From the IMG/VR virus record IMGVR_UViG_3300040802_000094, positions 20,956 to 84,955 of that record: DNA of 64,000 nt, one strand, 5' to 3'. The notes beneath the pieces were generated by a model. The model was not told where the DNA came from. It made no database searches and was given only the letters and a program-made list of their open reading frames with translations. Below, one piece after another: positions 3,835-23,957 of this stretch. The position numbers were made by a program, and so were the translations under genes. The DNA is from a virus. Position 1 is the first letter of the stretch; each line of letters begins with the position of its first letter.

Positions 3835-3867
3835 AAAAACCACCCAAAGTCGGGTGGCCGTGGCTTT

Positions 3868-4290
3868 TCAGCATTGAATTCTTCTGGCGATCGCCAGACA
3901 TTCCGGGGTGGGTTTTCCGTCGCCGGGAATTTGCAGTAAATGGACGGGAACCTCGGTCTCCAAAATGCGGCGACGGATCTTGGGCTTGAGGTCTTCCCAC
4001 CTTTGCTTGTCGCTGAGGGGGAAGTCAAATTCAAGTCCCGTCAGTGCGAACTGGTTCGAGACGAATTCCTCGATCGCCCCCCAGCGCTTCCTTCCGTCGA
4101 ATATTTCCAACAAGTTGTCCGAAGAATACAGCCAAAATTGACCGATAGGGACTCGAATGGCGATCGATTCGATAAATCGGCTTTTCGCCTCCCGGCTCCA
4201 CCCCTCGCTTCCGGGGTTTCGAGCCGTTCTCAAAAGTTCGGCGATCGATATAAACCGACTTTCAATTCTAAGGGTAGTGGGATCCATCAA
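3868..4290 (-). CDS. DUF262 (ParB/Srx-fold, GmrS-like) domain protein
   Basis: WSREAKSRFIESIAIRVPIGQFWL and IFDGRKRWGAIEEF match the DUF262 W...S.LI.S...P and DGQQR motifs, in degenerate form. Confidence 0.75.
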   Translation of the reverse strand: MMDPTTLRIESRFISIAELLRTARNPGSEGWSREAKSRFIESIAIRVPIGQFWLYSSDNLLEIFDGRKRWGAIEEFVSNQFALTGLEFDFPLSDKQRWEDLKPKIRRRILETEVPVHLLQIPGDGKPTPECLAIARRIQC

Positions 4291-4448
4291 AATCTCCTTT
4301 GTGGATACCCCGCCTGAAATCTGCGATCCAGGCGGGGGTTATTGACATACTCTTTGATTCAGTCAACTCCATATCTGAAGTGCGAAACAGGTTATGGAAA
4401 TAATATATGGCGTAGTGTAATATTCGCAGTAAAATCAATTCATAGCAA

Positions 4449-4871
4449 ATGAAGGTAATTCATGCATCGCATCTTGGGGGCATAAAATCAGCCCCCGATG
4501 TTTTGTATATGCCCGAGTGTCCGGAAGGACCTATTGTTTCCTATTGGAGGTACAAGGCCCTTCGAGGTGAAAAGGGCAATCTCAAAGACATGATCGAGAA
4601 CCGTAAGGGGAGGGTCGTGTTCTTTACCCTGCCGGGGTGGGTCCCGTGGCCTTACGGCGACATTTACACGCTGGATCTTCCCGACGAACAAGAGTGTTTC
4701 GCCGGGATTGCGTGTTTGAAGCACGTTCGGACGACGTTAAAACGTGCCGAAGAAGCTATTTTTACTGCCAACCATCTCCATCCCCTTTTGTGGGACAACC
4801 TTCATCACTTGGAGATTGTCATTCCCTGCGAGTGGTTCGACAGCAAGGGAATAATATTCCCGAAGGAGTAG
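4449..4871 (+). CDS. Hypothetical protein
   Basis: 140-aa ORF after an AT-rich promoter-like region, followed by a terminator hairpin. Confidence 0.65.
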   Translation: MKVIHASHLGGIKSAPDVLYMPECPEGPIVSYWRYKALRGEKGNLKDMIENRKGRVVFFTLPGWVPWPYGDIYTLDLPDEQECFAGIACLKHVRTTLKRAEEAIFTANHLHPLLWDNLHHLEIVIPCEWFDSKGIIFPKE

Positions 4872-4900
4872 CGGCCATTAAGCTTAGGTCGGGTACTGAC

Positions 4901-4934
4901 AAAAGCCCCCATATCAATCGATATGGGGGCTTTT
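4901..4934. terminator. Bidirectional intrinsic terminator
   Basis: AAAAGCCCCCATATC-AATC-GATATGGGGGCTTTT. Confidence 0.75.
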
Positions 4935-5047
4935 GTCTTTAGGGGGGCGGTTCAAATTGAAGCGATCTTCCTTGTAAGTTGGATGGGTGCGGGACGATCG
5001 CGATCGCGCCGGAAAAGGAAGCCCCTGTGGTACGATTGGAGTCAATA

Positions 5048-7619
5048 GTGCGATTCGTTCGGGAATCAAATAGGGCTGAAATGCCCGAAATAACCTCCCG
5101 GTAGGGCTTTCATCCCCTTGGATGAATATAAGGGACACACCCCCTGACCAGCCTTATAACTATCCATAGGTTCCAAAGTTTGGTATCACAAGATACCAAA
5201 TGAGGTCGGAACTCTCAAGGTCAAAGGGAAAGTTGGAGAATCTTAACAATTCTTAACAATCCCCGAGAGAGGAGGCGATAGCCACCCCCAGTTTTGGGAC
5301 TCACAACCCCAGGATTGAAGCGGGGAACGGAAGGCATGAGGTGGAACCTGCCACCAATAACTGACCACTGCCAACCATCTATGATTAACCGAAAGGTGAA
5401 CGTCTGACATGAACCCTCGATACAATCGGGTATCCAAACCAGGTTGAAAGGATGCTGCTCGAATGAGCAAGTGGAAAGATGGGATGCTTGTTGCCATACC
5501 CATACAGACCTTCAAAGTACACCGGGGGAGAGGACGAATCTAAGGATGGAATACCCCTATGGATGGAACGAAGTAACCCCATAATGGCTCTTGTTAAATG
5601 GTCGATTAAGCAAGTAGTGACGGCAATAGCCAAAAGTGTAAGCGTATGCCATATGGGGGTGAGATGTGACCAGAAGCCAATGCCTGAATGTAATGTCCAG
5701 GATACGCTGACAGGTCACGGTTCAGTTGTAAGATATGAGGCTCCAGTAGCAATTTAATGACGAAATCTAGAACATCAAAAGGCTTTGGAAAACCAAAACC
5801 CAATGACACTAAGAATGTATGGAAAACTGTCAACTGGGCGAAAGTCCAACGACAAGTTTTCAAGTTGCAAAAGCGCATCTATCAAGCGGCTCAATCGGGG
5901 ACTGTTGCAAAAGCTAGAAGGTTGCAAAAACTCCTTTTAAAGTCATACTATGCAAGGCTCCTTGCGGTTAGGCGCGTAACCCAAGATAACCAAGGTAAGA
6001 AAACAGCCGGAGTAGACGGGGTAAAATCAATATCCCTGAAACAAAGGTTAGAACTAGCTGAGGAAATCAAAGGAAACTTCAAAGCCAAACCCCTTCGGAG
6101 AGTATGGATACCAAAACCTGGGCGGGAGGAAAAACGCCCCCTTGGTATCCCCACAATCCGAGATAGAGCCAAGCAAGCCTTGGTCAAGATGGCATTGGAA
6201 CCCTTTTGGGAACCATTATTTGAGGGAACAAGCTATGGGTTCCGACCCGGACGCTCAACTCACGATGCCATAGCAAGAATCTTCTTAAGCATCAACAATG
6301 GGAATTATTACGTTCTCGATGCTGACATTGCTAAGTGCTTCGACCAAATTGACCATGACTACCTACTATCCAAACTTCGTTGTCCAACGACCATCAGGCA
6401 TAATATCAAACAATGGTTAAAAGCCGGGGTCATGGATAATGGTGTATTTGACGATACGAAAACAGGGACACCCCAAGGAGGGGTAATTAGTCCACTCCTC
6501 GCCAACATTGCACTGGATGGAATGGTGAGGTACATCAATCAAATCTTCCCTAACAAAAAGGGGCAGAAGATTAAAGCAACTGTCGTCAGATATGCTGATG
6601 ATTTCGTGGTCATCTCACCGGAACGCGAAATCATTGAACAGTGCCAGATTGCCCTATCCGAATGGTTAAAGCCCATCGGACTCCAACTCAAACCAGAAAA
6701 GACAAGAATTTGTCACACCCTTCAAGAAATTGAAGTAAACGGCGAAATAGTCCCACCTGGTTTCGACTTTTTGGGGTTCAATATTAGGCAATTCCCAGCC
6801 GGAAAACACGTATCCGGAAAGAGCGGTGGCGCAGCCAGTAAATCACTAGGATTCGTCACCCACATGAAACCGAGTAAAAAGGCAATCAAAGCCCACACCG
6901 AAAAGGTTAAAGAGGTGATAAAGAAACACAGAACATCACCTCAAGCCGCCCTGATAAGAGACTTAAACCCTGTCATCAGAGGATGGTCGAATTATTACTC
7001 AGGGGTAGTCTCAAAAGAGATTTTCGGAAAACTGGATAATACCATCTGGTTACAACTTAGGGCATGGGTAGTATCGAGATGTGGAAAGGTAGGTTACGAC
7101 CAATTCAGTAATTATTTCCGACCAGGAACAGTAAAAATTGGGAACGGTCAGGAAAGACACGAAACATGGCTATTCCAGACAAAAGATGGACTAACACTCC
7201 ACAAACATAACTGGACACAAATAATCAGACACAAGCTGGTCAAACCTGAAGCATCACCGTATGACGGAAATTGGACGTACTGGGCAACTAGAAGGGGAAC
7301 CGCTATTGGAACCCCGCAGCGAGTAGCAAAACTGCTGAAAAAGCAGAAAGGAAAGTGCAACCATTGTGGTCAGTATTTTACAAGTACAGACTTATTGGAA
7401 ATCGACCACATCACTCCTCAAAGCCTCGGCGGAAAGGATGATTACAAGAATCTCCAATTGTTGCACCGTCACTGTCACGACCAAAAGACTGCCCTAGATG
7501 GTAGTCAAAGCCGTACCCATAACAATGGGACAAATGGACTAGGAGCCGTGTGAGGTGAAAGTCTCATGCACGGTTTTGAATGGGAGGGGGAGATGGTAAC
7601 ATCTCTCTCGACCCCTAAT
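5048..7619 (+). mobile_element. Group II intron (IIB, chloroplast-like/cyanobacterial class), apparently complete
   Basis: 5' end GTGCGATTCGTT at 5048; domain V GAGCCGTGTGAGGTGAAAGTCTCATGCACGGTTT at about 7543-7576; domain VI ends ...CCCCTAAT at 7619; encloses the RT ORF; more AT-rich than the flanks, with no HIP1 seen. Confidence 0.92.
5757..7553 (+). CDS. ltrA: Group II intron reverse transcriptase/maturase with HNH endonuclease
   Basis: RVT_N (W..VNW.KVQRQVFKLQKRIY), KTAGVDG, RPLGIPTIRDR, SYGFRPGRS, GTPQGGVISPLLANI, RYADD, X domain LNPVIRGWSNYY, C-terminal CNHC...EIDHI...NLQLLHRHCHD. Confidence 0.97.
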   Translation: MTKSRTSKGFGKPKPNDTKNVWKTVNWAKVQRQVFKLQKRIYQAAQSGTVAKARRLQKLLLKSYYARLLAVRRVTQDNQGKKTAGVDGVKSISLKQRLELAEEIKGNFKAKPLRRVWIPKPGREEKRPLGIPTIRDRAKQALVKMALEPFWEPLFEGTSYGFRPGRSTHDAIARIFLSINNGNYYVLDADIAKCFDQIDHDYLLSKLRCPTTIRHNIKQWLKAGVMDNGVFDDTKTGTPQGGVISPLLANIALDGMVRYINQIFPNKKGQKIKATVVRYADDFVVISPEREIIEQCQIALSEWLKPIGLQLKPEKTRICHTLQEIEVNGEIVPPGFDFLGFNIRQFPAGKHVSGKSGGAASKSLGFVTHMKPSKKAIKAHTEKVKEVIKKHRTSPQAALIRDLNPVIRGWSNYYSGVVSKEIFGKLDNTIWLQLRAWVVSRCGKVGYDQFSNYFRPGTVKIGNGQERHETWLFQTKDGLTLHKHNWTQIIRHKLVKPEASPYDGNWTYWATRRGTAIGTPQRVAKLLKKQKGKCNHCGQYFTSTDLLEIDHITPQSLGGKDDYKNLQLLHRHCHDQKTALDGSQSRTHNNGTNGLGAV

Positions 7620-7641
7620 CAATGACTCATTTTATTGCCCT

Positions 7642-7674
7642 ACCCCGGCTCGTTATTTTGCGAGCCGGGGTTTT
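7642..7674 (+). terminator. Terminator-like hairpin in the leader of the tail/lysis operon
   Basis: ACCCCGGCTCG-TTATTTTG-CGAGCCGGGGTTTT, 18 nt before ATG 7693. Confidence 0.6.
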
Positions 7675-7692
7675 GTCTTTGGATTTAAACTT

Positions 7693-9915
7693 ATGCCCGA
7701 CGACGCTTTAAACCTTTCGGACAACGACCTAGGGGTTTTTCCTATTCCGGCGCAATCGCCAGACGACGTGCGCGCCCTTCTCGCAGAAGAGCTGCAACTA
7801 GACCTACTGATCGCGCTGCGCAACCTACAGCAATCTCGTCCGCCCGCCGCCTGGATTCAAAGCCCCGGACTGCTCGAAGACGAAGGACTGGTATCCCTCA
7901 ACGGACGAGCCATTTTCCCGATTTACCCCGCAAGGGAAGTGGCGATCGATACTTCCGTCCAGATTCCCTTGCTTCCCGATGCGGTTGCCTCGGTCGTTCG
8001 AGAGGACTTCCTCTCCCTCGTGGCCGTCGTCGCAGAAGTAGGGGCGGAACAAGATCCCAACCTCGGCGACTTGACTTTTTACTACAACGTCGATCGCCCC
8101 GACGGATCGGTGGAGGTCGAGCAACGGACGAGTGAAAATGCCCGGAGACTTAGGGTCTTTCTGATCGTATTGCTATCCCCCCACTTTCCCACCAAGGAAA
8201 GTGTCAAGGCTTTGTTGAGGGCGCAGCACCCCGAAGACGTCGAAGACGCCTATCACCTGACGATCGCCAACAAAGAAAAAGAAGGGTTCGCGATCGCCGA
8301 TTCTCAGATATACGCTTTCGACCCGCACTTCCTCGAAAAGACCTATCGCATTTTCCCCGACTACTTAGAATTTTTGGGGATTTGCAAGGTTCGGCGATCG
8401 AAAAATCATTCTACTGGCGGCTACATCCCCGACGACGGAATCAGCATCCTCCCGTCGATCGAGCTGACGGATGACAATACGAACCTCATCGTCCGCCGAC
8501 GCTGGATCGAACTTGCCACGGGCATGAATTTGGCGGGGGATTACTTGCTTTCGGTCAAGAATCTGATCCCCGGAGCGATTTCTCAGCACCAAGGGGCGGA
8601 GGGGGAAACGGCCATTTCCCCGAACGGAGCCGGGGTACTGGCCAACGGCCAGAGGACCTCGTTTTCCAACCAGGCGATTTCGGATCGCCGTTCTTGTTTC
8701 AAGACGATCGCCACCAACGATGGGAACGATCGCCCGATCGTCGCGATCGAGGTCAAACCTAACTCTCCTGTCGGGACGAGGTTCAGCGATCGATCGGAAA
8801 TGCATCGAATTTACTCGATCGATGGAGTGGAGCAATCGAAGCTCGGTCGGTTCGCCCGTATTGGCGGGAGTCACGGCGTCCTTTCCTGGATCGGCGGCGA
8901 GTATTCGACGATCCGCCCGGGAGATCCGTGTTACTTCGCGCCTTGCATCAACTATCCTGCCGGATCCGGATTTTCCACTGCATTCAAGTCGGTCGAAAAA
9001 GTATGGTTTCACCTTCAAGAAATCCATTCCGACAATATTAGAGATGCAAGCAAAAACGACGTCCTAGAATACGAAGATCCGGCTGGCGACGAAGACTACA
9101 TCGTCGTCTGGTCTTGGGATCGGTCTGCAATTCACTATATTTACAAAAAAATAGAATTAACTGCGAATAGTTTTGGTGTTATTTTTGCGCCTTCCGAGAT
9201 CGGAGGAAATATCGCTTTCATCGAGGGGATCCAGACCGACGGTCGGCATCGAATCGACGCCCCCGTGGCGAGGGGGCTGGTACCGAACCATACCTATCGA
9301 TGCTTAGTCTATTACCCACCCAAGCCGGAAGACCTCTGGCAATTTCTGTTGAAGTATCCAAGGTATGAAGGAATCGGGAGAGAGGAACCCGATTTTTTGA
9401 ACGGTGCGGAAATTATTTCCGATCCGATCCTGTTCGTCCATACCCAAGGGGGTGGCAATCTCGTCTATCGAGGGGATTCAACTTATCGGTATTCCCCGAT
9501 CGCCCGCTACCTTCCTCGTCTGTCGGAAAATATTCCCTACCCCGACCACTCGCTCTACGGGCCGATTCATTTCTTCGGTGCGAACTACCCGGGACCCGTT
9601 ACTTGGGACGAGGCGCAGATCCAGGCAGCACCCGGAGTCGCACTGCCGATGCTCGGCCAAACCTTGGCGACATTTTCAAGGCAAAACGTTCACGAGCGAT
9701 CGCTCAATGTCGCCCTCGCTTTCGGCGGCAACGTCTTGGGTTTCCGTACTCCCTCGATGGCGCACGACCATCCCTTTCAGAGCGTGCTGATCTTTGCGGT
9801 TAAGAAGGAAAATGCAGTGCGCGTGGCGATCGCCACGCACAATAACGTTGGGGGGCAGACGGCGAAGCTCGATACGGATCTCGGTACGGCTATTGATATC
9901 TTTAAATTGGTGTGA
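7693..9915 (+). CDS. Hypothetical phage structural (tail/baseplate-associated) protein
   Basis: 740-aa ORF, first of a tightly coupled operon; no family recognised. Confidence 0.7.
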   Translation: MPDDALNLSDNDLGVFPIPAQSPDDVRALLAEELQLDLLIALRNLQQSRPPAAWIQSPGLLEDEGLVSLNGRAIFPIYPAREVAIDTSVQIPLLPDAVASVVREDFLSLVAVVAEVGAEQDPNLGDLTFYYNVDRPDGSVEVEQRTSENARRLRVFLIVLLSPHFPTKESVKALLRAQHPEDVEDAYHLTIANKEKEGFAIADSQIYAFDPHFLEKTYRIFPDYLEFLGICKVRRSKNHSTGGYIPDDGISILPSIELTDDNTNLIVRRRWIELATGMNLAGDYLLSVKNLIPGAISQHQGAEGETAISPNGAGVLANGQRTSFSNQAISDRRSCFKTIATNDGNDRPIVAIEVKPNSPVGTRFSDRSEMHRIYSIDGVEQSKLGRFARIGGSHGVLSWIGGEYSTIRPGDPCYFAPCINYPAGSGFSTAFKSVEKVWFHLQEIHSDNIRDASKNDVLEYEDPAGDEDYIVVWSWDRSAIHYIYKKIELTANSFGVIFAPSEIGGNIAFIEGIQTDGRHRIDAPVARGLVPNHTYRCLVYYPPKPEDLWQFLLKYPRYEGIGREEPDFLNGAEIISDPILFVHTQGGGNLVYRGDSTYRYSPIARYLPRLSENIPYPDHSLYGPIHFFGANYPGPVTWDEAQIQAAPGVALPMLGQTLATFSRQNVHERSLNVALAFGGNVLGFRTPSMAHDHPFQSVLIFAVKKENAVRVAIATHNNVGGQTAKLDTDLGTAIDIFKLV

Positions 9916-9917
9916 TC

Positions 9918-11570
9918 ATGAGCGACATTCAAGAGTCAATTAATTTCGCGATCGCTGGAGGATCTCTCAGTCTGATCGGGGATTACAACCCGACGTTTTC
10001 TCGTCCGTCGGCAATTTTCATGGAGTTGGAGGTTGGGGCGGACACGTCATTTCTTCCAGTCCGTTCCGGAGAGCCTGCCGTCTACGACGACGGCTCGGTA
10101 CTGATCGAGCCGGAATCAAAAAATTTCTTACCTTGGAATATCGGACTGGAGCGCCCCAATTGGTACAAGGGGAGCAATATTATCGTCCGCGCCAACCTCA
10201 GCAACGACAGCACTTCCCGGAGGGAGGGCGATCGCATTGCCGCCCTTTCTCCGAGCTATCCGCCTTCGACCCCAGAAGAAAGAGCGCAGCAGTCGATCCG
10301 GCAAGAGATAGATCTTACGGCAGGGGTTTATACGATTTATGCCTCCCTTAGCTTGAAGAATGGGATGTTCGGTGTGGCGGACGCTCTACGCTTGGTTGCG
10401 GGAGAGCGGGTTCTCGGTTCCGTTCAGTTGAACGAATTGAACGACTACCTGGACAAAAATCGGATTGTCGAATTCCAGGCCGAGGTGTCGGAAGCCGATT
10501 CGGGACTGTACTTGGAACTGTATATCGAGAATGCAGTGACGCTCCACTGGCGAGGCGCGCAAGTTGAGAACAAGCCTTTCCGGTCTTCCTTGATTTACCA
10601 GCACGTCACTCCGGAGACGCGATCGCCGACGGTCCTTCGCTACAACCGCAACCCGATTTCCGGCCTCAATACTTTTGGACTGTTTTGTCACCTCAAGTAT
10701 TGGAGGGGCGACGGCAATATTGCCAAATTTGGCAATCTTCACGCTTACATTGAGGGCGATTACTTAAAAGTAAAGGCCGGATCTTTGACGATCGAGTGTC
10801 CGGAGATCTTGCCGAAAAAGGATCTCCGTTTTTTCGTTCAAGTATCGTCGGAAGCGCAAACGATCGCCCTGTACCTGAACGAAACACTCGTGGCAAAAGG
10901 GGCAATCCAGGGGTTCCGTCCCAGCCAGGATTCGGTAATCTTTGATTCGGAAGGGGTGCGCTGCCTGTCTTCCTGCTTCACGACGACTCGATTGATGAGT
11001 GACGGGCAAATCGCGATCGGCGAAGTTGCCTTGGAAGACGTCAAAAACCTATTCATTCCCGACATTATCTCGTTCGAGCTGATGTCGGTTCAGTCCTCGA
11101 TGCTGCTCCTGAATCCGATAACGATTCCGGCTGCCGCGACCGATCCGGACGTCGATCTCTTGATCCCCGGGTATGCGAGCGTTCGCCTGCCCTTTATCGC
11201 CAGCGACGCCCAGCCGATTCTCGACATTTTACCGGACGACAAAGTCAGAATTTCTTCGACTTTGAGTTTTGAGGTAGGGATGGCGATCGTTACGTCGCCA
11301 TCGTTTTCGATCGAGGTAGAGGTGGTCGAAAACGACAGGCTGTCCAACGTCCTGACGCTTTCCTCTGCAGCATTTTTGAATGTCGGCGACACGATCGCCC
11401 AAGCAAAAGCCCAGACGGAAGTAGAGGTCGATCCTCAAAATTACTACGTAGATCTGCTCGCTAGCGCCCCTGGAGTCAAGATTGCGCAAAAGTATATCAA
11501 CGGCTTCATTCTCTCGAATCAAAATACCGAACCCAAGACCGTTTCCCCTTCAATTTATATCAAGCACTAG
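9918..11570 (+). CDS. Putative tail fibre/spike protein with a LamG/concanavalin-like region
   Basis: GSVLIEPESKN resembles the 'GLLIE...TN' phage fibre motif; 'W.GAQVE...SSLI' motif; beta-rich 'IALYLNETLVA' segment. Confidence 0.6.
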   Translation: MSDIQESINFAIAGGSLSLIGDYNPTFSRPSAIFMELEVGADTSFLPVRSGEPAVYDDGSVLIEPESKNFLPWNIGLERPNWYKGSNIIVRANLSNDSTSRREGDRIAALSPSYPPSTPEERAQQSIRQEIDLTAGVYTIYASLSLKNGMFGVADALRLVAGERVLGSVQLNELNDYLDKNRIVEFQAEVSEADSGLYLELYIENAVTLHWRGAQVENKPFRSSLIYQHVTPETRSPTVLRYNRNPISGLNTFGLFCHLKYWRGDGNIAKFGNLHAYIEGDYLKVKAGSLTIECPEILPKKDLRFFVQVSSEAQTIALYLNETLVAKGAIQGFRPSQDSVIFDSEGVRCLSSCFTTTRLMSDGQIAIGEVALEDVKNLFIPDIISFELMSVQSSMLLLNPITIPAAATDPDVDLLIPGYASVRLPFIASDAQPILDILPDDKVRISSTLSFEVGMAIVTSPSFSIEVEVVENDRLSNVLTLSSAAFLNVGDTIAQAKAQTEVEVDPQNYYVDLLASAPGVKIAQKYINGFILSNQNTEPKTVSPSIYIKH

Positions 11571-11579
11571 GAGGTCGAG

Positions 11580-11999
11580 ATGCCCGATCAGAATCTAGAT
11601 CTGTATCCGGAGGACTTTCCAGATACTCTCAATACGGATTTAACAGTAGAACAAACCTTAATCCTCCACGCTTGGAGGATCCGTCGGCTGCAATCCTTTC
11701 GGATCCAGGGAGGGGCGATCGAGCTGTCTGCGTTGATCTCCGGACAGAACTTGAACGTCTATACCTCGAACGAGAGGCTCCCCTCCCTCCCCCAGATGAT
11801 TTCTGAAAATAACATCCTCGCGGGGGAGGAGGGCGATCGCCTCCTTCAGGAAAAAAGATACCTCTCCTTGCAGGAGAGCCAAGTAGGGACGGCAACTACC
11901 ATTTTGGAGATGCAGTCCACGATCGCCCAGATGAGTCAAGAGATTTCGGATCTGCGGACGTTGATTTACGAAATCACGGGTTCCGCCATCGATAACTAA
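11580..11999 (+). CDS. Hypothetical protein with C-terminal coiled coil
   Basis: GGAGG RBS; in operon. Confidence 0.7.
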   Translation: MPDQNLDLYPEDFPDTLNTDLTVEQTLILHAWRIRRLQSFRIQGGAIELSALISGQNLNVYTSNERLPSLPQMISENNILAGEEGDRLLQEKRYLSLQESQVGTATTILEMQSTIAQMSQEISDLRTLIYEITGSAIDN

Positions 12000-12015
12000 A
12001 GGATGCTGCGCCACC

Positions 12016-12231
12016 ATGGCACTAGAACAAAAAATTACAGAGTTGATCTCGGCGACCAGCCATCTTGTCGCCGACGGCAAGAAAAATCAAGAAGCGGCGA
12101 TGTCTAGCGCTCAAAAAGCACTGGCACAAATCACCGCACTGGAACGTAGAGTCAAGGCGATCGAGGAGGCGATCGACAAAGCCAAAACGATGGAAGAGTT
12201 GAAGCGAATGGTAGAAAAAGGAGGCGCGTAA
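12016..12231 (+). CDS. Small coiled-coil protein
   Basis: 71 aa with heptad pattern; directly upstream of the endolysin candidate. Confidence 0.65.
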   Translation: MALEQKITELISATSHLVADGKKNQEAAMSSAQKALAQITALERRVKAIEEAIDKAKTMEELKRMVEKGGA

Positions 12232-12234
12232 TCG

Positions 12235-13002
12235 ATGGGTATCTTTGTCGAACCCCTGCCGAAATCTCACTGTCTCTTCAAGAAAAGGCCGTTATCGAGC
12301 GTGTCGATTCCCGGGGAGACGGTAAGAATTGAGGAAAAGGTGGAAATCTCCGAGTACTCCCTTCCTCCCGAGCGAAAGCACATTCGTGTCCGATGGAAAA
12401 ATCTCGATTGGTTCGTTTTTGCCGAACATTGTCAGATCTTCGACGGAGGCAAAAAGGTTTGGCCGGAAGAGGTTCCGAGTAAGGTTTGCCTGGATCTCCC
12501 TTATTTGTCTCAGCTCGACAATTACGAAAATCCGACGGGTTCGTGCAACGTCACGAGCATGGCGATGTGCTTCCGCTACTTTGGGGTCGAGAGAGACCCG
12601 AATTATTCGAGATTTTCTCAGCTCGAAGACGAACTTTATAACGTGATGCTCGATTGCGGGCGATCGCGGCATTCGCCCCAAGATCTCAAGTGGCTTGCCG
12701 AGCGTTACGGCATCGACGATCGCTTTACGGTGAAGGCCACCCTCCAAGAAGTAAAAACCTGGCTGGCAAATGGAAACCCCGTCGTCGTCCACGGCTACTT
12801 TACGAGCTTCGGCCATATTATTGCCATCAAGGGGTATGACGACGTCCTCCAATCCTTCGTCGTCAACGATCCGTATGGCGAGTATTTCGATTCGGGATAC
12901 CGCACGGATCTCACTGGGGAATCTCTCAATTATTCGTACGATCTAATCCGAAGAACGTGCATGGATGACGGAGATTTCTGGGTTCATTTTTTATCCAAAT
13001 AG
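12235..13002 (+). CDS. C39-like (papain-fold) peptidase, probable endolysin
   Basis: LPYLSQLDN...GSCNVTSMAMC, HGYFTSFGHIIAIKGYD, VNDPYGE (Q/C/H/D catalytic set of Peptidase_C39_2). Lysis role inferred from phage context. Confidence 0.85.
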   Translation: MGIFVEPLPKSHCLFKKRPLSSVSIPGETVRIEEKVEISEYSLPPERKHIRVRWKNLDWFVFAEHCQIFDGGKKVWPEEVPSKVCLDLPYLSQLDNYENPTGSCNVTSMAMCFRYFGVERDPNYSRFSQLEDELYNVMLDCGRSRHSPQDLKWLAERYGIDDRFTVKATLQEVKTWLANGNPVVVHGYFTSFGHIIAIKGYDDVLQSFVVNDPYGEYFDSGYRTDLTGESLNYSYDLIRRTCMDDGDFWVHFLSK

Positions 13003-13031
13003 AATAATTACGATCGCAGAAAGGGTGCGAG

Positions 13032-15458
13032 ATGTTTCGACTGAAGTCTAATTTACATAATTCGAGATTCAGGCGATGGTTTCCCACCGTCTTTCGGTTG
13101 ATAGACGCGATCGACTACTGGCACTGGTGGCATTTTCGTCACGTCGAAGACATTAGGGCGGGGCTAGATACGGTTCCCGCCGTATTTGTTCTGTGGAGCA
13201 AAAACGAGGGCGTTCGACAATTAAATAACGAATACCTCGCCTCTTTTTCGGAAGAGTGGGGAACTCAGTTCTCCGAGTTATTTGATATCTCGGAACAAAT
13301 TCAGCAGTTTCGAGACTCGCCTCGCCAGGAAATTGTTTACGACGTTTCCTTTCCGATGAACGATGGCAAGTCAAAAGTCGATTATATTTTCTTCTTCCGG
13401 AAGTACGATCGCGGCAACAAGATCATTGCGGTAGGACTCGATATTTCCGATCAAAAAGTTGTCGAGCGGGAGCTTAAGAATGCCTATTCCCAGCAAAAAA
13501 CAATCCAAATTATTTTAAATCGCATCCGAACGTCTTTAGAGATAGAAGAAACGCTGCAGCTTGCCTGCGAAGAGGTTCGCAAGGAGTTGAGCTGCAGTCG
13601 CGTAGTGATCTATCAGTTCAACTCCAGTTATTCGGAGGGATGGGTATGTTCGGAATCGATCGACGACAAAATTGGCTCGATTCGCGGGAGGGATTTGGAA
13701 GACCCTTGTTTTAACAAGGTTGCCAAAGAATATATTCGGAAAGGCTTTGCCGTATGCAGCGACGTTCGGAATACGCAAAGTTGCTACAAAGAAATGCTGC
13801 TCGGACTCAACGCCAAGTCCAGTCTCACGGTGCCGATCATGGAGGAAGACAAGTTGTGGGGGCTGATGGCGTGCCACCAACAAGAGCCGTTCTATTGGGA
13901 CGAAAGGGCGATCGTTTTAGTTAGGGAAGTTTGTCGCCAGCTTCAAATTGCGGTACAGCAGCACAAGCTTTACGAACAATTGCGCTTGCGCGAGCAACAA
14001 CTCAAGGTAGATCTGCAGCGAGAGCAGCTTTTACTGGAAGACGGCTTGGTTGGAGTTTTGAGATTGAAGTGGAATAAATCTCAAGATTTCACGATCGGCT
14101 ACGTTCAAAATTCAGAGCAGTTTTTTCGCAGCTCTTCGAGCGCGATGTCCGGAAAGAATTTCTTGGACTTTATTCACCCCCAAGACCGAGATACTTTCCT
14201 CGCGGTTTGCGAGGCGATCGTTTCCGGGACGACGGGAAATGACGATATTTTTTACCGAGTTGTCGATGCGAACAGGCAAATAAAATGGGTTTATAACTTC
14301 GTTCGTGTCGCCAGAGCGCACGAAGCGGAAATTGAGATCGACGGCTACATCGTTGACGTGACGAGCTACAGGCAGGCCGAAGAACGGGCGAAACTACTCG
14401 TAAGCTCTTTACCCGTATTCATTTTCGCGATCGACAAAGAGAATCGATTCGCCCTTTGCGAAGGAAGGAATATCCGGGGAATCCCTTCTCAAATCGTCGG
14501 GCAAAACGTGATTGAGGTTTACGCCAATCTCAACTGCTTTGAGGTTGGCGAGGCGATCGAAGCGGCTAGGGCGGGAGATCCCCTCAAAAAGACCTTCAAC
14601 TTGAACGGTCAGTTTTATCGCCATTACTTTACGCGATCGGAAAACGAAGAATCCGTCTTGGGAGTCGCTTTCGACGTGACGGACTTGACGATCGCCCAGC
14701 TCGCCCTAGAGAAAGCGAGTCAAGAAATGGAGGCATTCTTGCATTTCACGTCTCACGACTTGCAGGCTCCCTTGCGAACCGTATCGAATTACCACAAGCT
14801 ATTTCTACGTCACCTTCAAAAGCAATACTCGCTGACGCCGGAGGCCGACCCCGTACTTTCGAGTCACACCGAAAAAATCCAAGCATCCCTGGAGCGGGAA
14901 CGTCGGTTGATCGAGGATCTCCTGGCTTTTTCGAGAATCAACCGGGTCGAGTCCGACATCGAACTTCTCGATCTGAACGAAATTTTAAACTCCGTAAAAG
15001 CCGTCCTCGCCGATCGCATTACCGAAAATAGAGCCACAATCTTTTGCAGGCAAACCCTGCCGACGCTGTGGGGCGATCGCACTCAAATCGAGTCGGTATT
15101 CCAAAACCTGTTAAGCAATGCGATTAAATTCCAAAGGCCGGATCTAGACCCCGAAATACGAATCGAATGCGAAGAAAGGCTTCTCGACGGGGAGCGCGCG
15201 TGGTACTTCCGGTGGATCGACAACGGTATCGGCATCGCCCCCTTGGACGGCAGCAAAACCTTCGAGGAAGCGGCGGAAGCTATCTTTTCCCCGTTCAAAA
15301 AAATGCATTCTTCCTCCTATTCTGGGACGGGGATAGGGCTTGCCGTCGTCAAAGCCGTCATCGAAAAACACCGAGGTAAGGTGTGGGCTTCGGAGAACCC
15401 TTCGGGGGGGACCATTTTTCACCTGCATCTCCCAGAAGGAAAGGGGAGGGAGGTATGA
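13032..15458 (+). CDS. Sensor histidine kinase with DXCF cyanobacteriochrome GAF, PAS domains, HisKA and HATPase
   Basis: IRTSLEIEETLQ...RVVIYQF...ES...LEDPCF...SCYKEML...SLTVPI...LWGLMACHQ...W (CBCR GAF); FIHPQDR (PAS); SHDLQAPLRTV (H-box); NLLSNAIKF, DNGIGI, GTGIGLAVVK (N, G1, G2 boxes). Confidence 0.93.
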   Translation: MFRLKSNLHNSRFRRWFPTVFRLIDAIDYWHWWHFRHVEDIRAGLDTVPAVFVLWSKNEGVRQLNNEYLASFSEEWGTQFSELFDISEQIQQFRDSPRQEIVYDVSFPMNDGKSKVDYIFFFRKYDRGNKIIAVGLDISDQKVVERELKNAYSQQKTIQIILNRIRTSLEIEETLQLACEEVRKELSCSRVVIYQFNSSYSEGWVCSESIDDKIGSIRGRDLEDPCFNKVAKEYIRKGFAVCSDVRNTQSCYKEMLLGLNAKSSLTVPIMEEDKLWGLMACHQQEPFYWDERAIVLVREVCRQLQIAVQQHKLYEQLRLREQQLKVDLQREQLLLEDGLVGVLRLKWNKSQDFTIGYVQNSEQFFRSSSSAMSGKNFLDFIHPQDRDTFLAVCEAIVSGTTGNDDIFYRVVDANRQIKWVYNFVRVARAHEAEIEIDGYIVDVTSYRQAEERAKLLVSSLPVFIFAIDKENRFALCEGRNIRGIPSQIVGQNVIEVYANLNCFEVGEAIEAARAGDPLKKTFNLNGQFYRHYFTRSENEESVLGVAFDVTDLTIAQLALEKASQEMEAFLHFTSHDLQAPLRTVSNYHKLFLRHLQKQYSLTPEADPVLSSHTEKIQASLERERRLIEDLLAFSRINRVESDIELLDLNEILNSVKAVLADRITENRATIFCRQTLPTLWGDRTQIESVFQNLLSNAIKFQRPDLDPEIRIECEERLLDGERAWYFRWIDNGIGIAPLDGSKTFEEAAEAIFSPFKKMHSSSYSGTGIGLAVVKAVIEKHRGKVWASENPSGGTIFHLHLPEGKGREV

Positions 15459-15520
15459 CAAACATCCCGATTCCTCCGAGGAAACGCAGATTCGATCGCT
15501 AGTTACTTGAGAGTCTCTTT

Positions 15521-15931
15521 ATGCTCAAAATTCTTTACATAGAAGACTCGGAGGACGACTATGAATTCTTCAAAATTGCCTTTGAAGGAAAGGCGGATGT
15601 CGAGTGGGAGGAAAGTGCGAGGTTCGCCCTCGACTCGCTCAAGCAAAGGAGAGTCGCGGACTATCCTGACTTGATCTTTCTCGATTTAAATTTAATCGGC
15701 ATTTCCGGACTTGAGTTCTTAGAACTGCTTCCCCGAGAAGCCCCTTACGTCCTCGCCAAAGTGCCGATCGTTATTTTTACCTCAAGCGCGTATTATAACG
15801 ATATCGACATGGCTTACCTACATCGAGTCTCCAGCTATATCAGAAAACCCCTGGACATAGACGAACTTTGCGATTGCGCTGAAGTGGTCTGCCAGTTTTA
15901 CGGGCAAACCTGCATTCTTCCCACAAAATGA
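15521..15931 (+). CDS. Single-domain response regulator (Rcp1-like)
   Basis: ILYIEDSEDD, PDLIFLDLNL, IVIFTSS...DIDMAY, SSYIRKP; pattern typical of phytochrome-partner receivers. Confidence 0.92.
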   Translation: MLKILYIEDSEDDYEFFKIAFEGKADVEWEESARFALDSLKQRRVADYPDLIFLDLNLIGISGLEFLELLPREAPYVLAKVPIVIFTSSAYYNDIDMAYLHRVSSYIRKPLDIDELCDCAEVVCQFYGQTCILPTK

Positions 15932-16833
15932 CCAATACTGAATCCGTAATTCACCTTATCGAAGATTCGGACAGCGATGCCGACGTTGCCGAAATACTTT
16001 TGAATGAGGCGGGGTTTAGGGTGTTTCGATATCCGACGCTTTCAAAGGAACGACTGATCCGCAATATCGAAAAATATCCGGAGACGAAGCACATCGTTTT
16101 GTTGGACTTATTCGGAGTTTCCCCGGAGTCGCCAAAGGAAATCATTGAAAACGTTCAAGGATGTTTCCAGTCGCGCCAGGATGTCGATATCGAAATTGTC
16201 GTCCTTTCTGGCGGATCGAGTCCCGAACTTGTTCAGATGGTGAAGTCCCACGGGTTGCAGTTTCTGTCGAAAAATGAAGCCCTCGACCCCGACACCGACA
16301 CCTTGGCGGTCAACCTCAAGCAAATCCAACAAGATCGGGGAATTGAAAAAAGTATATGGATACTGGAATCGAAGCTAGATCAACTGCATTTGAGGCACCA
16401 GATGGCGGTCGATCGCTTCTCTCAGGAAATCGGCTCGATTCAAACCGCCTACCAGGAAGTTCACCGACTGGTGTATAGCTTGGAAGCAAGACAGAATCGC
16501 GACGAAAGCGATCGCCTCGCCGGAGGGCAAAATGTCGAACGACACCTCAAAGGACTGGAGGTCAAAATTCAGGAACGAATCGATCGCATCCAGGAAAATT
16601 CCGAAGCGACGAAGGTTTTACAGTACCTCGTCCCTCTCGCCGCTCAATTCCGGCATAACCAAATTGGAGAAGACGAATTCAGGGCGATGGCTCAAGCCAT
16701 TCGCTCGATCGTATTGATCAAAAAAAATCCCAAAAAGGCGATCGGGTTGGCCCTCCTGTTCCTGACACTAATGGCGAGCGCCCAGGATCGAATTGTCGCC
16801 CTCCTTCGTATGGTATTTGAGATTTTTAAGTAG
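15928..16833 (+). CDS. Receiver domain plus coiled coil plus C-terminal transmembrane segment
   Basis: IHLIEDSDSD, IVLLDL, IVVLSG, FLSK (REC residues retained); long coiled coil; KKNPKK-AIGLALLFLTLMASA; ATGA overlap with the previous gene. Confidence 0.8.
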   Translation: MTNTESVIHLIEDSDSDADVAEILLNEAGFRVFRYPTLSKERLIRNIEKYPETKHIVLLDLFGVSPESPKEIIENVQGCFQSRQDVDIEIVVLSGGSSPELVQMVKSHGLQFLSKNEALDPDTDTLAVNLKQIQQDRGIEKSIWILESKLDQLHLRHQMAVDRFSQEIGSIQTAYQEVHRLVYSLEARQNRDESDRLAGGQNVERHLKGLEVKIQERIDRIQENSEATKVLQYLVPLAAQFRHNQIGEDEFRAMAQAIRSIVLIKKNPKKAIGLALLFLTLMASAQDRIVALLRMVFEIFK

Positions 16834-17150
16834 ACTTAATTTTGGGGACTTGTACTGTCTGTCCGGAATGGAGATCCCAAATTGTCGTGCGGTTGTAAAG
16901 CAAAAATCGTTTGTAGCGATCGCCGGGAAATTTATTTTTCTTCAAAAAAAGTGGAAGGGGATCTCGATACGATCGCAATTCCGCCTCTCGGTAGCGGGGA
17001 AGCTTGAAGGGAGGACGTCGATTTAATCGCTCCCAGAAAGGGGTTGAGGGGTTGGCCATTTTGTCGAGCTATCGTGCTATCCTAAAATCTGAGCGATCGC
17101 TATTCGAGCCGAGAGCGATCGCTCTTCACAAAATAGTATTACAAAACCGT

Positions 17151-17185
17151 AAAGCGCGGGGACGTTGCAGTCCCCGCGCTTTTTT
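17151..17185 (+). terminator. Terminator-like hairpin directly before the head operon
   Basis: AAAGCGCGGGGAC-GTTGCA-GTCCCCGCGCTTTTTT, 14 nt before ATG 17200. Confidence 0.65.
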
Positions 17186-17199
17186 GTTTGGAGCGAGTT

Positions 17200-18906
17200 A
17201 TGTCCGATCAATTCATCGAAGCCATCGGCAAAACCCTCAGCCAGAAAAATGTTTCGCGACTCAAGGAAATTTGGTCGTCGCTTACTGAGCTGCTGGCGAG
17301 TACGGGAAACCTCGAAATAGAAGATCTACCAAAAACTTTAATCGACCCGCAATCTCAATACGACCTTCACAATATGGAAGGAGAGATTGCCGCTTCCGGG
17401 CGAAAAGGTATTGATGTCGGCGCGCAACTCGAATGTACGGCGTGGGCTGCAAAAGTCAACAGGCTCGCCGACATTTTCGCTCTTTTGTTGCGTACTTATC
17501 CTAGGGTATTCAAATACGAACAAGAGGGTGAAGCCGAATTCGAGCCTCCCGAAGAACGGCTCAGCCGACTGCTGAAGGAGATAACGGACGCCGCTTTTTT
17601 GCTTTGTAAGGAAAAACCAGACACCCGCTCAAATGCGGATATTTATGCGAGTTCGGGAGAGGGAGAAAAAGAAGACTTCGGCGATCCTTCAATATCCAAG
17701 GCCGAAGGGGAAACGGAGTCCGAAAGTACTTCGGATGTCGAGACCGAAACCTTGATGGCAAGAGATCTCGCGGAAGCCGAAGGCGAGGTTCGCGAAGTTT
17801 TCAATATTGAAATTGCCGCGCGAGCGATGCCGACCGCCAAGAAGGCCGCCAACGAAAGGCCGATCGACGGAATCCTCTTCCAGGTCGATCGGCCCAGCGA
17901 GGCAATTCCGGAAGTGGGGCCCGGCTTGCCCCTGTTGATTCCGAAAGAGGTCGCCCTGGCGGCGATCGCGGACATCACCCCCGGGAAACCAAAACCCTTG
18001 GACGCGCACGACACCTTCGCCCGCCATTCCAACCGAGATATTGTCGGCGCCATGACCAGCGCCTACCTCGAAGGAGACGACCTCGTCGTCCAGGGAGTCC
18101 TTTGGGATTACAACCAGCCGGACAAGATTCAGGCGATCGGCCAGGAGACACAGCGTCTCGGCATGTCCGTCAATGCGACAGCCGACGGACATGTCGCCGA
18201 GTGGGGCGGAACGAAAGTCTGGCAGGTAGATCGCCTGCAGATCTTGGGTGCAAACATCTTGTTTTCGGATAAAGCGACTTTCAAGCGGACGCGGATTATT
18301 CGCGCGATCTCGAAATCTTCTTTGGGGGATTTCGAGCAGCCGATCGCGGCGCGGGCGGAAGATTCGCCGGACTCGGAAGACCTGCCTTTAAACAAAACCT
18401 TCGACCCAGAAGAGGACACCATGAGTAACGAAGCAATTTCACAGCAAATACAAGTGATCGCAAGCTCAGTCAAGGAAGTTCAGACGATCTTCGCCCAGGA
18501 ACTGGAAGCGTTGCAGGAAGCCGTCCGAGACCTGAGTACGCAAGTCTCGGATATCCAGTACGAACGGGAGCAAAGTCAGAGTTCGATCCAGGCTGCCGCG
18601 CAAGAAGAAGCCAAGCAGAAAGAAAGAGAGGATTTGCTGGCATCGATCGCCGAAGTCGTTGACGCAAAACTGGCGAATCTTCCCGGTCCTCGGCGAGCGG
18701 GCTACAGCATTCCACTTGCCGCGTCGAGTCCGCCTTCGGCAACGGCTGGCGATCGGAAAATGGAAATCCAACTGCAATTGAGCAAGTTAAACGGACAGAT
18801 TGAGGTAATGCAGCGAGATCCCAATATGTCCGGCTCTCCAGAAATCATTTCGTTGATCGACAACCGTCGCCAGCTCGTCGCCCAACTAGAATCCTTCGCC
18901 AACTAA
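17200..18906 (+). CDS. Prohead protease/scaffold fusion protein
   Basis: Central protease-like core (FARH...IVGAMTSAYLEGDDLVVQGVLW...LGMSV...ILGANIL), acidic linker, C-terminal coiled coil; lies immediately upstream of the MCP. Confidence 0.75.
   Translation: MSDQFIEAIGKTLSQKNVSRLKEIWSSLTELLASTGNLEIEDLPKTLIDPQSQYDLHNMEGEIAASGRKGIDVGAQLECTAWAAKVNRLADIFALLLRTYPRVFKYEQEGEAEFEPPEERLSRLLKEITDAAFLLCKEKPDTRSNADIYASSGEGEKEDFGDPSISKAEGETESESTSDVETETLMARDLAEAEGEVREVFNIEIAARAMPTAKKAANERPIDGILFQVDRPSEAIPEVGPGLPLLIPKEVALAAIADITPGKPKPLDAHDTFARHSNRDIVGAMTSAYLEGDDLVVQGVLWDYNQPDKIQAIGQETQRLGMSVNATADGHVAEWGGTKVWQVDRLQILGANILFSDKATFKRTRIIRAISKSSLGDFEQPIAARAEDSPDSEDLPLNKTFDPEEDTMSNEAISQQIQVIASSVKEVQTIFAQELEALQEAVRDLSTQVSDIQYEREQSQSSIQAAAQEEAKQKEREDLLASIAEVVDAKLANLPGPRRAGYSIPLAASSPPSATAGDRKMEIQLQLSKLNGQIEVMQRDPNMSGSPEIISLIDNRRQLVAQLESFAN
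18421..18906 (+). CDS. Probable nested in-frame scaffold protein (internal start)
   Basis: AGAGGA-CACC-ATG in frame at the start of the coiled-coil region; same arrangement as lambda C/Nu3. Confidence 0.5.
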   Translation: MSNEAISQQIQVIASSVKEVQTIFAQELEALQEAVRDLSTQVSDIQYEREQSQSSIQAAAQEEAKQKEREDLLASIAEVVDAKLANLPGPRRAGYSIPLAASSPPSATAGDRKMEIQLQLSKLNGQIEVMQRDPNMSGSPEIISLIDNRRQLVAQLESFAN

Positions 18907-22397: not shown

Positions 22398-23957
22398 GTG
22401 GCAGAGGAAGAAACCAAACCGATCGAGGCAGAAGAGGAAGAGGAAGAAAAAGAGGAGGGCGAAAAAGAAGGCGAAACGGATGCCGTCGAAGAAATGCAGG
22501 AAGAATCGGAAGACGGAGAAGAGGAAGATGTCGAACCCGAATACGAAGGGCCTCCGGGGCCGCGATACAAAACCTTAATCGAAGTCAAGATCGGCAAAGA
22601 TACTTTTTCCAATGTCAACGGAGATTTCCTCGACTATCCGACGTGCAAAATCGTACTGTCAACTTGGTTATTTTCTAACGCACAGTTCGTCTTGAACGAC
22701 CCGGATGGGGAGATTTTTGAGAAGATCGACGATAGCTCCGAGGTCGTAATTTCCTTGGGGTTTGCCGGAGCCGAAAAGAAAAAGAAGCTGACGGGAAAGA
22801 TTTATTCGATCGGACGCATTCTCCCTATCGGTACCGTCGTTAGTATTGCCGACGCTACGGCCACGATGAACCGCCCGACAACTTCCGTCAATTCGGACTC
22901 GGATGGGACGGCGCCGTCCCCCGAAGACACCCCCGAACCTTGGGACGATGTCGTTTACACCACGGGAAGTCTGCTATTTAAAAAATTCAAAGAGATGGCC
23001 GACAAGCACAAGGAAGAAGGGGGATCCCTCCCCGTCGTCAACGAAGACGGGGAGGAAGGGCAGAAAGAGGAAAAGAGCTTTGACGATATTGTCAAAACTT
23101 CCGAAAAAGTAAGCGCGCAAATGCTCGAAGAAGGAACGGCACCCAATAGGACGACGGCGAGGATGGCGGCTCTGTTTAAAGGGGTTGGCGGCCAACTCAA
23201 GGCCAAAGACCGAACCATCGCCAATCCCTCGAAAGGAGGAGAGGTCTTGGCGATGGCGTCGAGTATGAATGCGGCGATCGTCGAGTCGATCATGAAAGGG
23301 AACGTTATCGTAACGGAAGGGAACCAGGTAAAAGAGGTCTCTGCAGGAAAAGAAGAAAAAAGTAAAATTACGATCGACGTTGCCAACCACACGTTTTACG
23401 GCAATCCTCAAATTATCAAAAAAGGTCCCGTCCAACTGGCAAGGGCTTTCGTCAACGTCAGCAGTCCCGACGCGATCAACAAAACCGTACACAGCGCCAC
23501 GGTGGGAACGAAGCCTTCCGTTATCGACGCGAGCGGTCCGGTCAACGTCCCCGAATGGGGGGAGATCAACCTAGAAGATCCGATCGTCGAAGGCTCTCAG
23601 TACACCTGGAGCGACGCGACGGCGGGAGGCGCGCGCGTTCCGGAATCCAAGTCCGTGATGGAGGGGATCGCGCGCGTTTGCAAGTGGCTCGATAAATGGA
23701 CGAACGAAGAAAATGGCGGCGAGAAGTTTTTGATTACTTCGTGGTACCGCGAACCTGCCTATAATATGCAAGTGGCGTCGTCGGGGGCGAACGGCCCCCA
23801 CACGACGGGCAACGCCGTCGATTTTTGGTTCGAGAATTATCTGGATTTGTGCGACAAGTTGGATCCGGAGTGGGATGGCGGCCTTGCCTGGAGCCTCAAC
23901 TCCGAATTCATGCATGTCGATCTCGGCGCGCACGGGAGGTGGAGCTACGACCACTGA
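22398..23957 (+). CDS. Baseplate hub (gp27/gpD-like) fused to a Peptidase_M15 Zn cell-wall hydrolase
   Basis: Glu-rich N-terminus; FVLNDPDG...VVISLGFAG...LTGKI hub pattern; ITSWYR...YN...H..GNAVDF...FMHVDLG (M15). Confidence 0.8.
   Translation: MAEEETKPIEAEEEEEEKEEGEKEGETDAVEEMQEESEDGEEEDVEPEYEGPPGPRYKTLIEVKIGKDTFSNVNGDFLDYPTCKIVLSTWLFSNAQFVLNDPDGEIFEKIDDSSEVVISLGFAGAEKKKKLTGKIYSIGRILPIGTVVSIADATATMNRPTTSVNSDSDGTAPSPEDTPEPWDDVVYTTGSLLFKKFKEMADKHKEEGGSLPVVNEDGEEGQKEEKSFDDIVKTSEKVSAQMLEEGTAPNRTTARMAALFKGVGGQLKAKDRTIANPSKGGEVLAMASSMNAAIVESIMKGNVIVTEGNQVKEVSAGKEEKSKITIDVANHTFYGNPQIIKKGPVQLARAFVNVSSPDAINKTVHSATVGTKPSVIDASGPVNVPEWGEINLEDPIVEGSQYTWSDATAGGARVPESKSVMEGIARVCKWLDKWTNEENGGEKFLITSWYREPAYNMQVASSGANGPHTTGNAVDFWFENYLDLCDKLDPEWDGGLAWSLNSEFMHVDLGAHGRWSYDH

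Follow-up and report, generated by a model that had tools for sequence, protein, structure and literature searches.

Can a bacteriophage carry its own light-sensing phosphorelay, and which step of infection might such a relay control? The question is raised by a 64,000-nucleotide stretch of viral DNA (hereafter the window), comprising bases 20956–84955 of the 84,955-bp IMG/VR virus record IMGVR_UViG_3300040802_000094, which was recovered from a microbial mat and has a completeness rating of about 45%. A first-pass annotation, made from the letters of the window alone, had pointed to three co-oriented plus-strand genes behind a C39-type peptidase and had proposed that they form a complete phage-borne circuit, expressed late and possibly gating lysis by light. 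Our analysis suggests that the locus is a cyanophage copy of a recurrent signalling cassette, made of a histidine kinase with a GAF domain of the DXCF lineage and two receivers, and that it might work as a light relay; we assign this whole statement a probability of about 0.5. We regard it as highly probable that the genes and domain families are those named, that their catalytic residues are intact, that the locus lies in a phage and that the cassette recurs, and bilin-based light sensing, as judged from the protein sequence, might or might not hold with roughly equal chances.

The gene map proved to be as annotated. The peptidase gene (12235–13002) is followed after 29 nucleotides by the kinase gene (13032–15458, 808 amino acids (aa)), by a gene for a receiver, REC1 (15521–15931), and by a third open reading frame (ORF; 15928–16833), which overlaps the REC1 gene by 4 nucleotides and encodes a protein of 301 aa. 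The kinase is a soluble sensor histidine kinase with no hydrophobic segment and consists of a PAS-like N-terminus, a GAF domain, two PAS domains, HisKA and HATPase_c, for which Pfam returned matches to GAF (9e-15, aa 171–308), PAS_3, HisKA (5e-07) and HATPase_c (2e-22). The dimerisation and phospho-acceptor domain HisKA (14730–14942) carries H575 (14754–14756) within SHDLQAPLRT, a sequence conserved with the other phage kinases introduced below, and the catalytic HATPase_c domain (15072–15437) contains the N, G1, F and G2 boxes. The boxes reported as intact are indeed present (H-box SHDLQAPL, N box QNLLSNAIKF, G1 box DNGIGI and G2 box GTGIGL), as is the F box (FSPF), so that the protein has the H-box histidine together with the four further boxes of a HisKA-type sensor kinase. 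QNLLSNAIKF, DNGIGI and GTGIGL are invariant or nearly so across the phage kinases. The best solved relatives of the kinase core found by a PDB search are bacteriophytochrome kinase modules (5e-29).

REC1 (136 aa, Pfam Response_reg 6e-13) consists of a single receiver domain and belongs to the phytochrome-response-regulator type; its D55 is encoded at 15683–15685. Its best solved relatives are RcpB (1e-15), a bacteriophytochrome-linked receiver, RcpA and Rcp1, in agreement with the Rcp1-like label given earlier, and it keeps E8/D9, D55, T87 and K109, the residues of an Rcp-type single-domain response regulator, including the Asp, Thr and Lys already described as intact. The 301-aa third protein had been read as a receiver followed by a coiled coil and a transmembrane (TM) helix. 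The Pfam scan found no domain in it, and the search of 5.8 billion clusters found no homologue. A model of the whole protein from its single sequence was poor (pLDDT of 49), and a Foldseek search with this poor model was suggestive at most. When residues 1–118 (15928–16281) were modelled by AlphaFold2 from a six-row alignment with five distant relatives, the pLDDT rose to 79 with the (beta-alpha)5 topology, and Foldseek returned 138 PDB matches at E ≤ 1e-3, the top ones all being receivers. D13, D60 (16105–16107), S94 and K115 are kept and align with their counterparts in the REC2 proteins of other phages. Judged by the model, the N-terminus is a divergent receiver with phospho-acceptor residues, hereafter REC2. 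The receiver part of the earlier reading therefore stands, by the model and by weak similarity to the phage REC2s below Pfam detection, and the TM part is marginal. Behind the receiver lies a long, coiled-coil-like region (aa 124–265, 16297–16722), where continuous helices are predicted with low confidence, and then a hydrophobic C-terminal tail (aa 270–301, 16735–16830), a possible membrane anchor with a Kyte-Doolittle maximum of 1.6. We considered an H-L-K-G motif in the REC2 helices as HPt-like and rejected it because it does not match the HPt consensus, H-x-x-K-G. The absence of a DNA-binding output domain, as previously remarked, was borne out by Pfam scans of the cassette proteins.

The same arrangement recurs in at least six other viral contigs, which we report here as new. 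We define the cassette, a grouping made in this work, by adjacent genes of one orientation in a viral contig that encode a HisKA kinase whose N box is of the QNLLSNAIKF type, a REC1 resembling the Rcp proteins and a divergent REC2 extended at its C-terminus. One example is found in the Microcoleus phage My-WqHQDG (OR578706.1, 88856–91946), a draft genome obtained from benthic mats sampled in the Wolastoq river, Canada. It encodes a kinase, REC1, REC2 and a 179-aa coiled-coil protein whose C-terminus forms a TM helix; three of these four genes, the kinase gene among them, are labelled "hypothetical" in the record, and the preprint describing the phage never mentions the kinase and receivers. 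This kinase has a membrane anchor, a degenerate relative of the window GAF domain, a PAS domain, HisKA and HATPase, and its core is 30% identical to that of the window kinase over 370 aligned residues (query aa 447–800). Since REC2 and the coiled-coil/TM protein are encoded separately in My-WqHQDG, the third protein of the window can be regarded as a fusion of its last two genes. A 4151-aa ORF (69922–82377) lies about 6.5 kb upstream of the My-WqHQDG cassette, and tblastn gave no link between it and the tape-measure ORF of the window.

Motif and profile scans of IMG/VR yielded the other five contigs. The gene order is TM kinase, REC1, REC2 in L009; PAS-PAS kinase, REC1, REC2 in L011 and L013; REC2-like, PAS kinase, REC1 in L012; and REC2, here ending in a strong TM helix at its C-terminus, GAF_2-PAS kinase, REC1 in L015. 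REC2, coil and TM helix are thus fused into one gene in L015 and divided between two in My-WqHQDG, and three of the cassettes have membrane-anchored REC2 outputs. In cross-phage comparisons, the REC1s resemble one another (the window REC1 clusters with those of other phage cassettes at 33% identity, 2e-15), and the REC2s are closer to other REC2s than to REC1s. The phages bearing the cassettes are otherwise scarcely related; the window and My-WqHQDG share five proteins only. PHROGs contains unannotated kinase and receiver families.

Could the three genes be a passenger set, recently captured from a host and playing no part in the phage cycle? Their domain types are typically cyanobacterial, and their GC content at third codon positions (0.56–0.60) is slightly below that of most neighbours (0.61–0.69). 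These two points would suit a recent capture. Searches of 5.8 billion clusters and of 1.84 billion representatives gave no close cellular homologue of the cassette. For the kinase itself no close cellular relative turned up, the next cluster being 31% identical over 21% of its length, and related-locus searches with the whole kinase and with a two-row alignment as queries returned no relatives. One 700-aa cluster member (P0120) is the identical protein with a later start call and no variant. Every catalytic residue is intact, the three-gene architecture is repeated in unrelated phages, and neither flanking repeats nor a transposase were found around the cassette, where the only repeats seen were of the HIP1 type. 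A passenger set is therefore most improbable.

The cassette also belongs physically to the phage genome, because a single assembled DNA contig covers 7546–18039, including the cassette and both flanks, at a depth equal to that of the flanks. The phage origin is further supported by the IMG/VR record itself, by virion proteins and by a giant tape-measure ORF at 48787–64000, which runs without a stop through more than 5070 codons as far as the window end and matches PHROG 1533 (4e-87, first 1200 aa). Family matches, including PHROG, on the record comprise virion and head-decoration proteins, a helicase and a methyltransferase; most of the remaining proteins have no family assignment. The circuit is phage-borne and complete, with every catalytic residue present, as had been inferred in the first-pass annotation. 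The phage is a cyanophage, as indicated by two signals. The C39 peptidase gave 80 tblastn matches in INPHARED (50,697 phage records), all in cyanophages, namely phages of Leptolyngbya, Arthronema, Microcoleus, Acaryochloris and Synechococcus. The cyanobacterial palindromic octamer HIP1, GCGATCGC, occurs 91 times in the window against 3.4 copies expected. HIP1 copies of GCGATCGC are dense within the tape-measure ORF, and this abundance suggests a long adaptation to a HIP1-rich host.

Whether the kinase could sense light depends on its GAF domain (aa 171–308, 13542–13955). A phmmer search of the PDB placed this domain in the cyanobacteriochrome lineage, with matches to 6oap (1e-20), NpR6012g4 (9e-18), miRFP670nano and TePixJ (7e-15); among the matches listed, the top ones are GAF proteins of cyanobacteriochromes or knotless phytochromes (Cph2). 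The 1.84 billion representatives include 7918 relatives at E ≤ 1e-3, with computed per-domain identities of up to 41%, and for comparison we used 485 GAF domains taken from the 149 best-matching proteins among these 7918. The DPCF motif (D224–F227, 13701–13712), with C226 as the candidate second cysteine, aligns with the Asp-motif of NpR6012g4 (EDTHL); 183 of the 485 related domains have DxCF. The S250-C251-Y252 stretch (13779–13787) brings C251 into the canonical Cys column of NpR6012g4, which is occupied by Cys in 360 of the 485 domains, and makes C251 the candidate canonical bilin-binding cysteine. Alignments with NpR6012g4 and with DXCF GAF domains thus agree with the earlier remark that both bilin-binding positions are kept. 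Like the two cysteines, the Asp-motif Asp, the Phe, Y233, H282 and W289 have stayed in their correct columns. By its sequence, the domain belongs to the DXCF, or two-cysteine, cyanobacteriochrome lineage.

The residue directly after the canonical cysteine is Tyr252 in the phage domain instead of His. In the comparison set, this position is His in 233 domains and Tyr in 91, Cys-Tyr is present in 80 of the 183 DxCF domains, and the best single-domain match combines DPCF with Cys-Tyr, as does the phage GAF domain. The DxCF/Cys-Tyr domains form an abundant natural two-cysteine subtype, and Tyr252 is accordingly the mark of this subtype and no defect. Proteins such as P0125 have up to eight tandem GAF domains, every one with DPCF and Cys-Tyr. 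In the engineered miRFP670nano, the His-to-Tyr replacement at the equivalent site (H87Y) retains covalently bound bilin (PMC6336887).

Several observations weigh against a photosensory kinase and relay. The distance between C226 and C251 is 25 residues, compared with 28 in 155 of 174 aligned domains that combine DxCF with Cys-His or Cys-Tyr, and a spacing of 25 is absent from those tabulated for these 174 domains. Five sites conserved in at least 88% of the relatives differ (D189S, A263S, N264S, R287F and A301C), E293A is a further deviation at a site with 81% conservation, and the phage domain matches 27 of the 40 positions with a conservation of 70% or more, departing from the usual spacing and core residues. 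We found no literature report of a characterised DxCF/Cys-Tyr domain. A bilin reductase was looked for in the 85-kb fragment and not found, a result of little weight because the record is only about 45% complete. Among the other cassettes, the sensors are PAS, TM or unrelated GAF_2 domains, so that light is not the general input of the cassette family. The hydropathy of the REC2 tail, with its maximum of 1.6 on the Kyte-Doolittle scale, is marginal, and its counterparts in L015 (3.4) and My-WqHQDG (1.9) are clear C-terminal TM helices. Finally, a tree of kinase cores (116 rows) puts the phage kinases with the nearest rows, and no supported clade unites them; the architecture supports a common module, and the kinases themselves may or may not share descent.

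Some of these observations would be expected if the GAF domain had lost or never had bilin binding, and the kinase read a metabolite, redox or energy state through its GAF and PAS domains, as the sister kinases with PAS or TM sensors presumably do. The shortened Cys-Cys spacing and the substitutions at highly conserved sites, the PAS-PAS, TM or GAF_2 inputs of other cassettes, and the three PAS-like domains flanking the GAF domain all fit such a state sensor. So does My-WqHQDG, whose homologous GAF domain (29% identity to that of the window over 99 aa) lacks both Cys motifs and whose cassette is still kept. The retention in place of both cysteines, the Asp, the Phe, Y233, H282 and W289 would be unexpected after the loss of bilin binding, and Cys-Tyr is common in natural DxCF domains. 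We therefore consider a non-photosensory state sensor a genuine contender that falls short of even odds. For bilin binding by the GAF domain, the 25-residue spacing and the substitutions at conserved sites leave the odds at about even, and a phage photoreceptor relay is accordingly a plausible reading of the locus.

If the kinase responds to light, does it time lysis? Membership in a lysis cassette had been claimed earlier. In that scheme, the relay would belong to a lysis module, and phosphorylated REC2 would work at the membrane as holin, antiholin or lysin regulator, tying the moment of burst to light or the time of day. The peptidase lying 29 nucleotides upstream of the kinase gene is a 255-aa C39-like enzyme of the papain fold (Pfam Peptidase_C39_2 7e-21), probably of the cyanophage endolysin type (PHROG 10051 'endolysin', 4e-19). 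It is 49% identical to its homologue in Leptolyngbya phage Lbo402-yong5 by tblastn, and several of its Synechococcus phage homologues carry the annotation "endolysin". All the genes are co-oriented, and the strong terminator follows REC2, with no comparable terminator-like site before 17151. The hydrophobic tail of REC2, whose counterparts elsewhere are true TM helices, and a 160-aa protein with four TM helices two genes downstream of REC2 in L009 would also suit a lysis timer. Against these points, no holin-like ORF was found among the plus-strand ORFs examined (11580–17288), in which the marginal REC2 tail is the sole hydrophobic stretch, and the REC2 extension has no detectable similarity to holin or spanin families. 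Nor was a lysin recognised beside the cassettes of My-WqHQDG, L009, L011, L012 and L015. The My-WqHQDG lysins and C39 homologue are far from the cassette, which is flanked by a primase on one side and a PIF1 helicase on the other, and the C39 homologue is located on a different genome fragment. The L009 cassette (3327–9031) is situated between the portal and MuF/capsid genes, the L012 cassette (3513–9472) adjoins the portal gene, and those of L011 and L015 are surrounded by genes of no known function. The set of kinase, REC1 and REC2 is shared with other viral contigs, and no linkage to a recognisable lysin was seen in the five contigs examined. Lysin adjacency looks local rather than defining because the sister cassettes sit elsewhere, and the assignment to a lysis cassette is not supported. 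The lysis timer is speculative, and we consider it unlikely.

The cassette had been located between tail and head genes; the head side has a weak match to a PHROG major head family (7e-05), and the tail side has a language-model lead to lectin-like fibre proteins only. Nothing informative came from PDB sequence searches with the proteins at 7693–9915 and 9912–11570, with the capsid candidate or with the peptidase, and a related-locus search with the putative capsid as query found no relatives. A strong bidirectional intrinsic terminator at 17151–17182, with a 13-bp stem, 9 G-C pairs and a T-run on the plus strand, ends the unit ahead of the scaffold and capsid genes. The co-orientation with the flanking structural genes and the lack of a comparable terminator-like site before it lend weak support to the proposed late expression. 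One RNA-library contig bridges the junction between the C39 and kinase genes; DNA carry-over is possible there, and a contig cannot show a single transcript. The depth of the RNA-library contigs, 11–16 on the flanks and low-depth scraps over 13.2–17.1 kb (two runs, one sample), is not usable as an expression level. In two unrelated contigs, L009 and L012, the cassette is placed inside a head-morphogenesis module beside the portal gene, and in the window the scaffold and capsid candidates come directly downstream of the cassette. This proximity may mean that insertion favours such a site or that the cassette is functionally tied to the assembly of heads.

The relay could also act on the host instead of on the phage programme. 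REC1 or membrane-bound REC2 might act on type IV pili, phototaxis or host two-component partners, thereby keeping infected filaments in, or letting them seek, light that is good for phage production or for spread through the mat. REC1, as a stand-alone receiver of the CheY/Rcp type, must act by protein contact, and the missing DNA-binding output points in the same direction. The mat source of the DNA, together with the nearest lysin relatives from phages of filamentous cyanobacteria, would also be in line with such a hijack. On the other side, the cassette has no pilus or chemotaxis genes linked to it, and sister cassettes are found in phages of non-cyanobacterial composition (GC 0.55–0.66, HIP1 absent). 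We consider a hijack of host behaviour distinctly unlikely.

Two further features of the window deserve mention. A group II intron at 5757–7619 encodes a reverse transcriptase/maturase with an HNH domain (PHROG 1423, 1e-95) and includes an Rfam Intron_gpII domain V/VI at 7541–7619. The RNA-library contig depth reaches about 100–140 over the intron, compared with 8–16 on the adjacent genes, and the divergence of several contigs at 7539 suggests further copies of the intron in the mat community. A 519-aa protein at 22398–23957 in the structural block has a weak C-terminal match to Peptidase_M15/endolysin-like domains (Pfam 1e-3; PHROG 894 1e-5) and may be a second, virion-associated cell-wall enzyme.

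How does the window cassette compare with known systems? Sequence matches (1e-20 to 7e-15) put the GAF domain in one lineage with the DXCF domains of TePixJ and of PPHK (PDB 6oap, the best solved match), with which it shares Asp-x-Cys-Phe and the canonical cysteine, and PPHK is a dual-sensor kinase with its GAF domain linked to a HisKA kinase, as in the phage protein. The phage domain, known here from its sequence, differs from them in being encoded by a phage, in having Tyr for His and a 25- rather than 28-residue spacing, and in several changed conserved sites. The Cph1-Rcp1 and CphA/B-RcpA/B pairs resemble the phage kinase core, with its bacteriophytochrome-like modules, and REC1, the single-domain receiver being encoded directly downstream. 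However, the phage kinase has neither a PHY domain nor the knotted PAS-GAF-PHY core, and the phage-borne locus adds a second, divergent receiver with a helical or membrane extension. The My-WqHQDG cassette has the same order of kinase, REC1, REC2 and coiled-coil/TM module with a weakly related GAF-like region, yet its kinase is membrane-anchored, its GAF domain is without the Cys motifs, its REC2 and coiled-coil/TM protein are separate, and it lies in a primase-PIF1 helicase setting rather than after a lysin.

Closest in kind are viral proteins with a cyanobacteriochrome-like GAF fold (CrV-01T ORF 65 and P-SS2 ORF 97), the only published ones from viruses that we found; the paper calls its example the first in viruses (PMC12481020). 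They are likewise cyanophage-encoded cyanobacteriochrome-related GAF proteins with possible membrane association, small and divergent with a single GAF domain, mostly with an N-terminal TM helix and without a kinase or receiver (PMC12481020). The founding member, CrV-01T ORF 65, was identified by comparing folds, and no bilin-binding cysteine is reported for these proteins in the section consulted (PMC12481020). By contrast, the GAF domain of the window is recognisable by sequence, keeps both cysteines and is joined to a full kinase and two receivers. We found no paper on a phage cyanobacteriochrome kinase, and our phrase searches of the literature on phage-encoded histidine kinases found no paper.

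The photosensory relay that we favour might operate as follows. In the infected cyanobacterium, the GAF domain would attach host phycocyanobilin via C251, with C226 providing the second linkage. The bilin-loaded domain would then report short-wavelength light, violet/blue versus green/teal, and its light state would govern autophosphorylation at H575. The phosphoryl group would move to D55 of REC1 and D60 of REC2, and REC2, held at the membrane by its tail, would alter a protein-protein or membrane event, with no transcription factor as output. We infer the bilin binding, the colour, the phosphotransfer partners, the membrane anchoring and the target, for which lysis timing is one candidate. 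In its widest form, the phage would sense light colour with its own bilin kinase and relay it via a phage-specific, membrane-tethered receiver to time a late infection event such as lysis, release or a membrane change, as one of a wider, undescribed family of kinase-REC-REC relays with interchangeable sensors; this wider proposal is tentative and, on balance, doubtful.

Light shapes the adsorption, replication and lysis of cyanophages, an effect attributed to host physiology. If the light-relay reading is true, a phage-encoded photoreceptor kinase would mean that the virus itself reads light. Because it has a single GAF domain that can be expressed together with phycocyanobilin, the locus is a directly testable candidate. 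The recurrent, unannotated kinase-receiver-receiver module with its swappable inputs could be a general way in which large phages sense the conditions of the infected cell.

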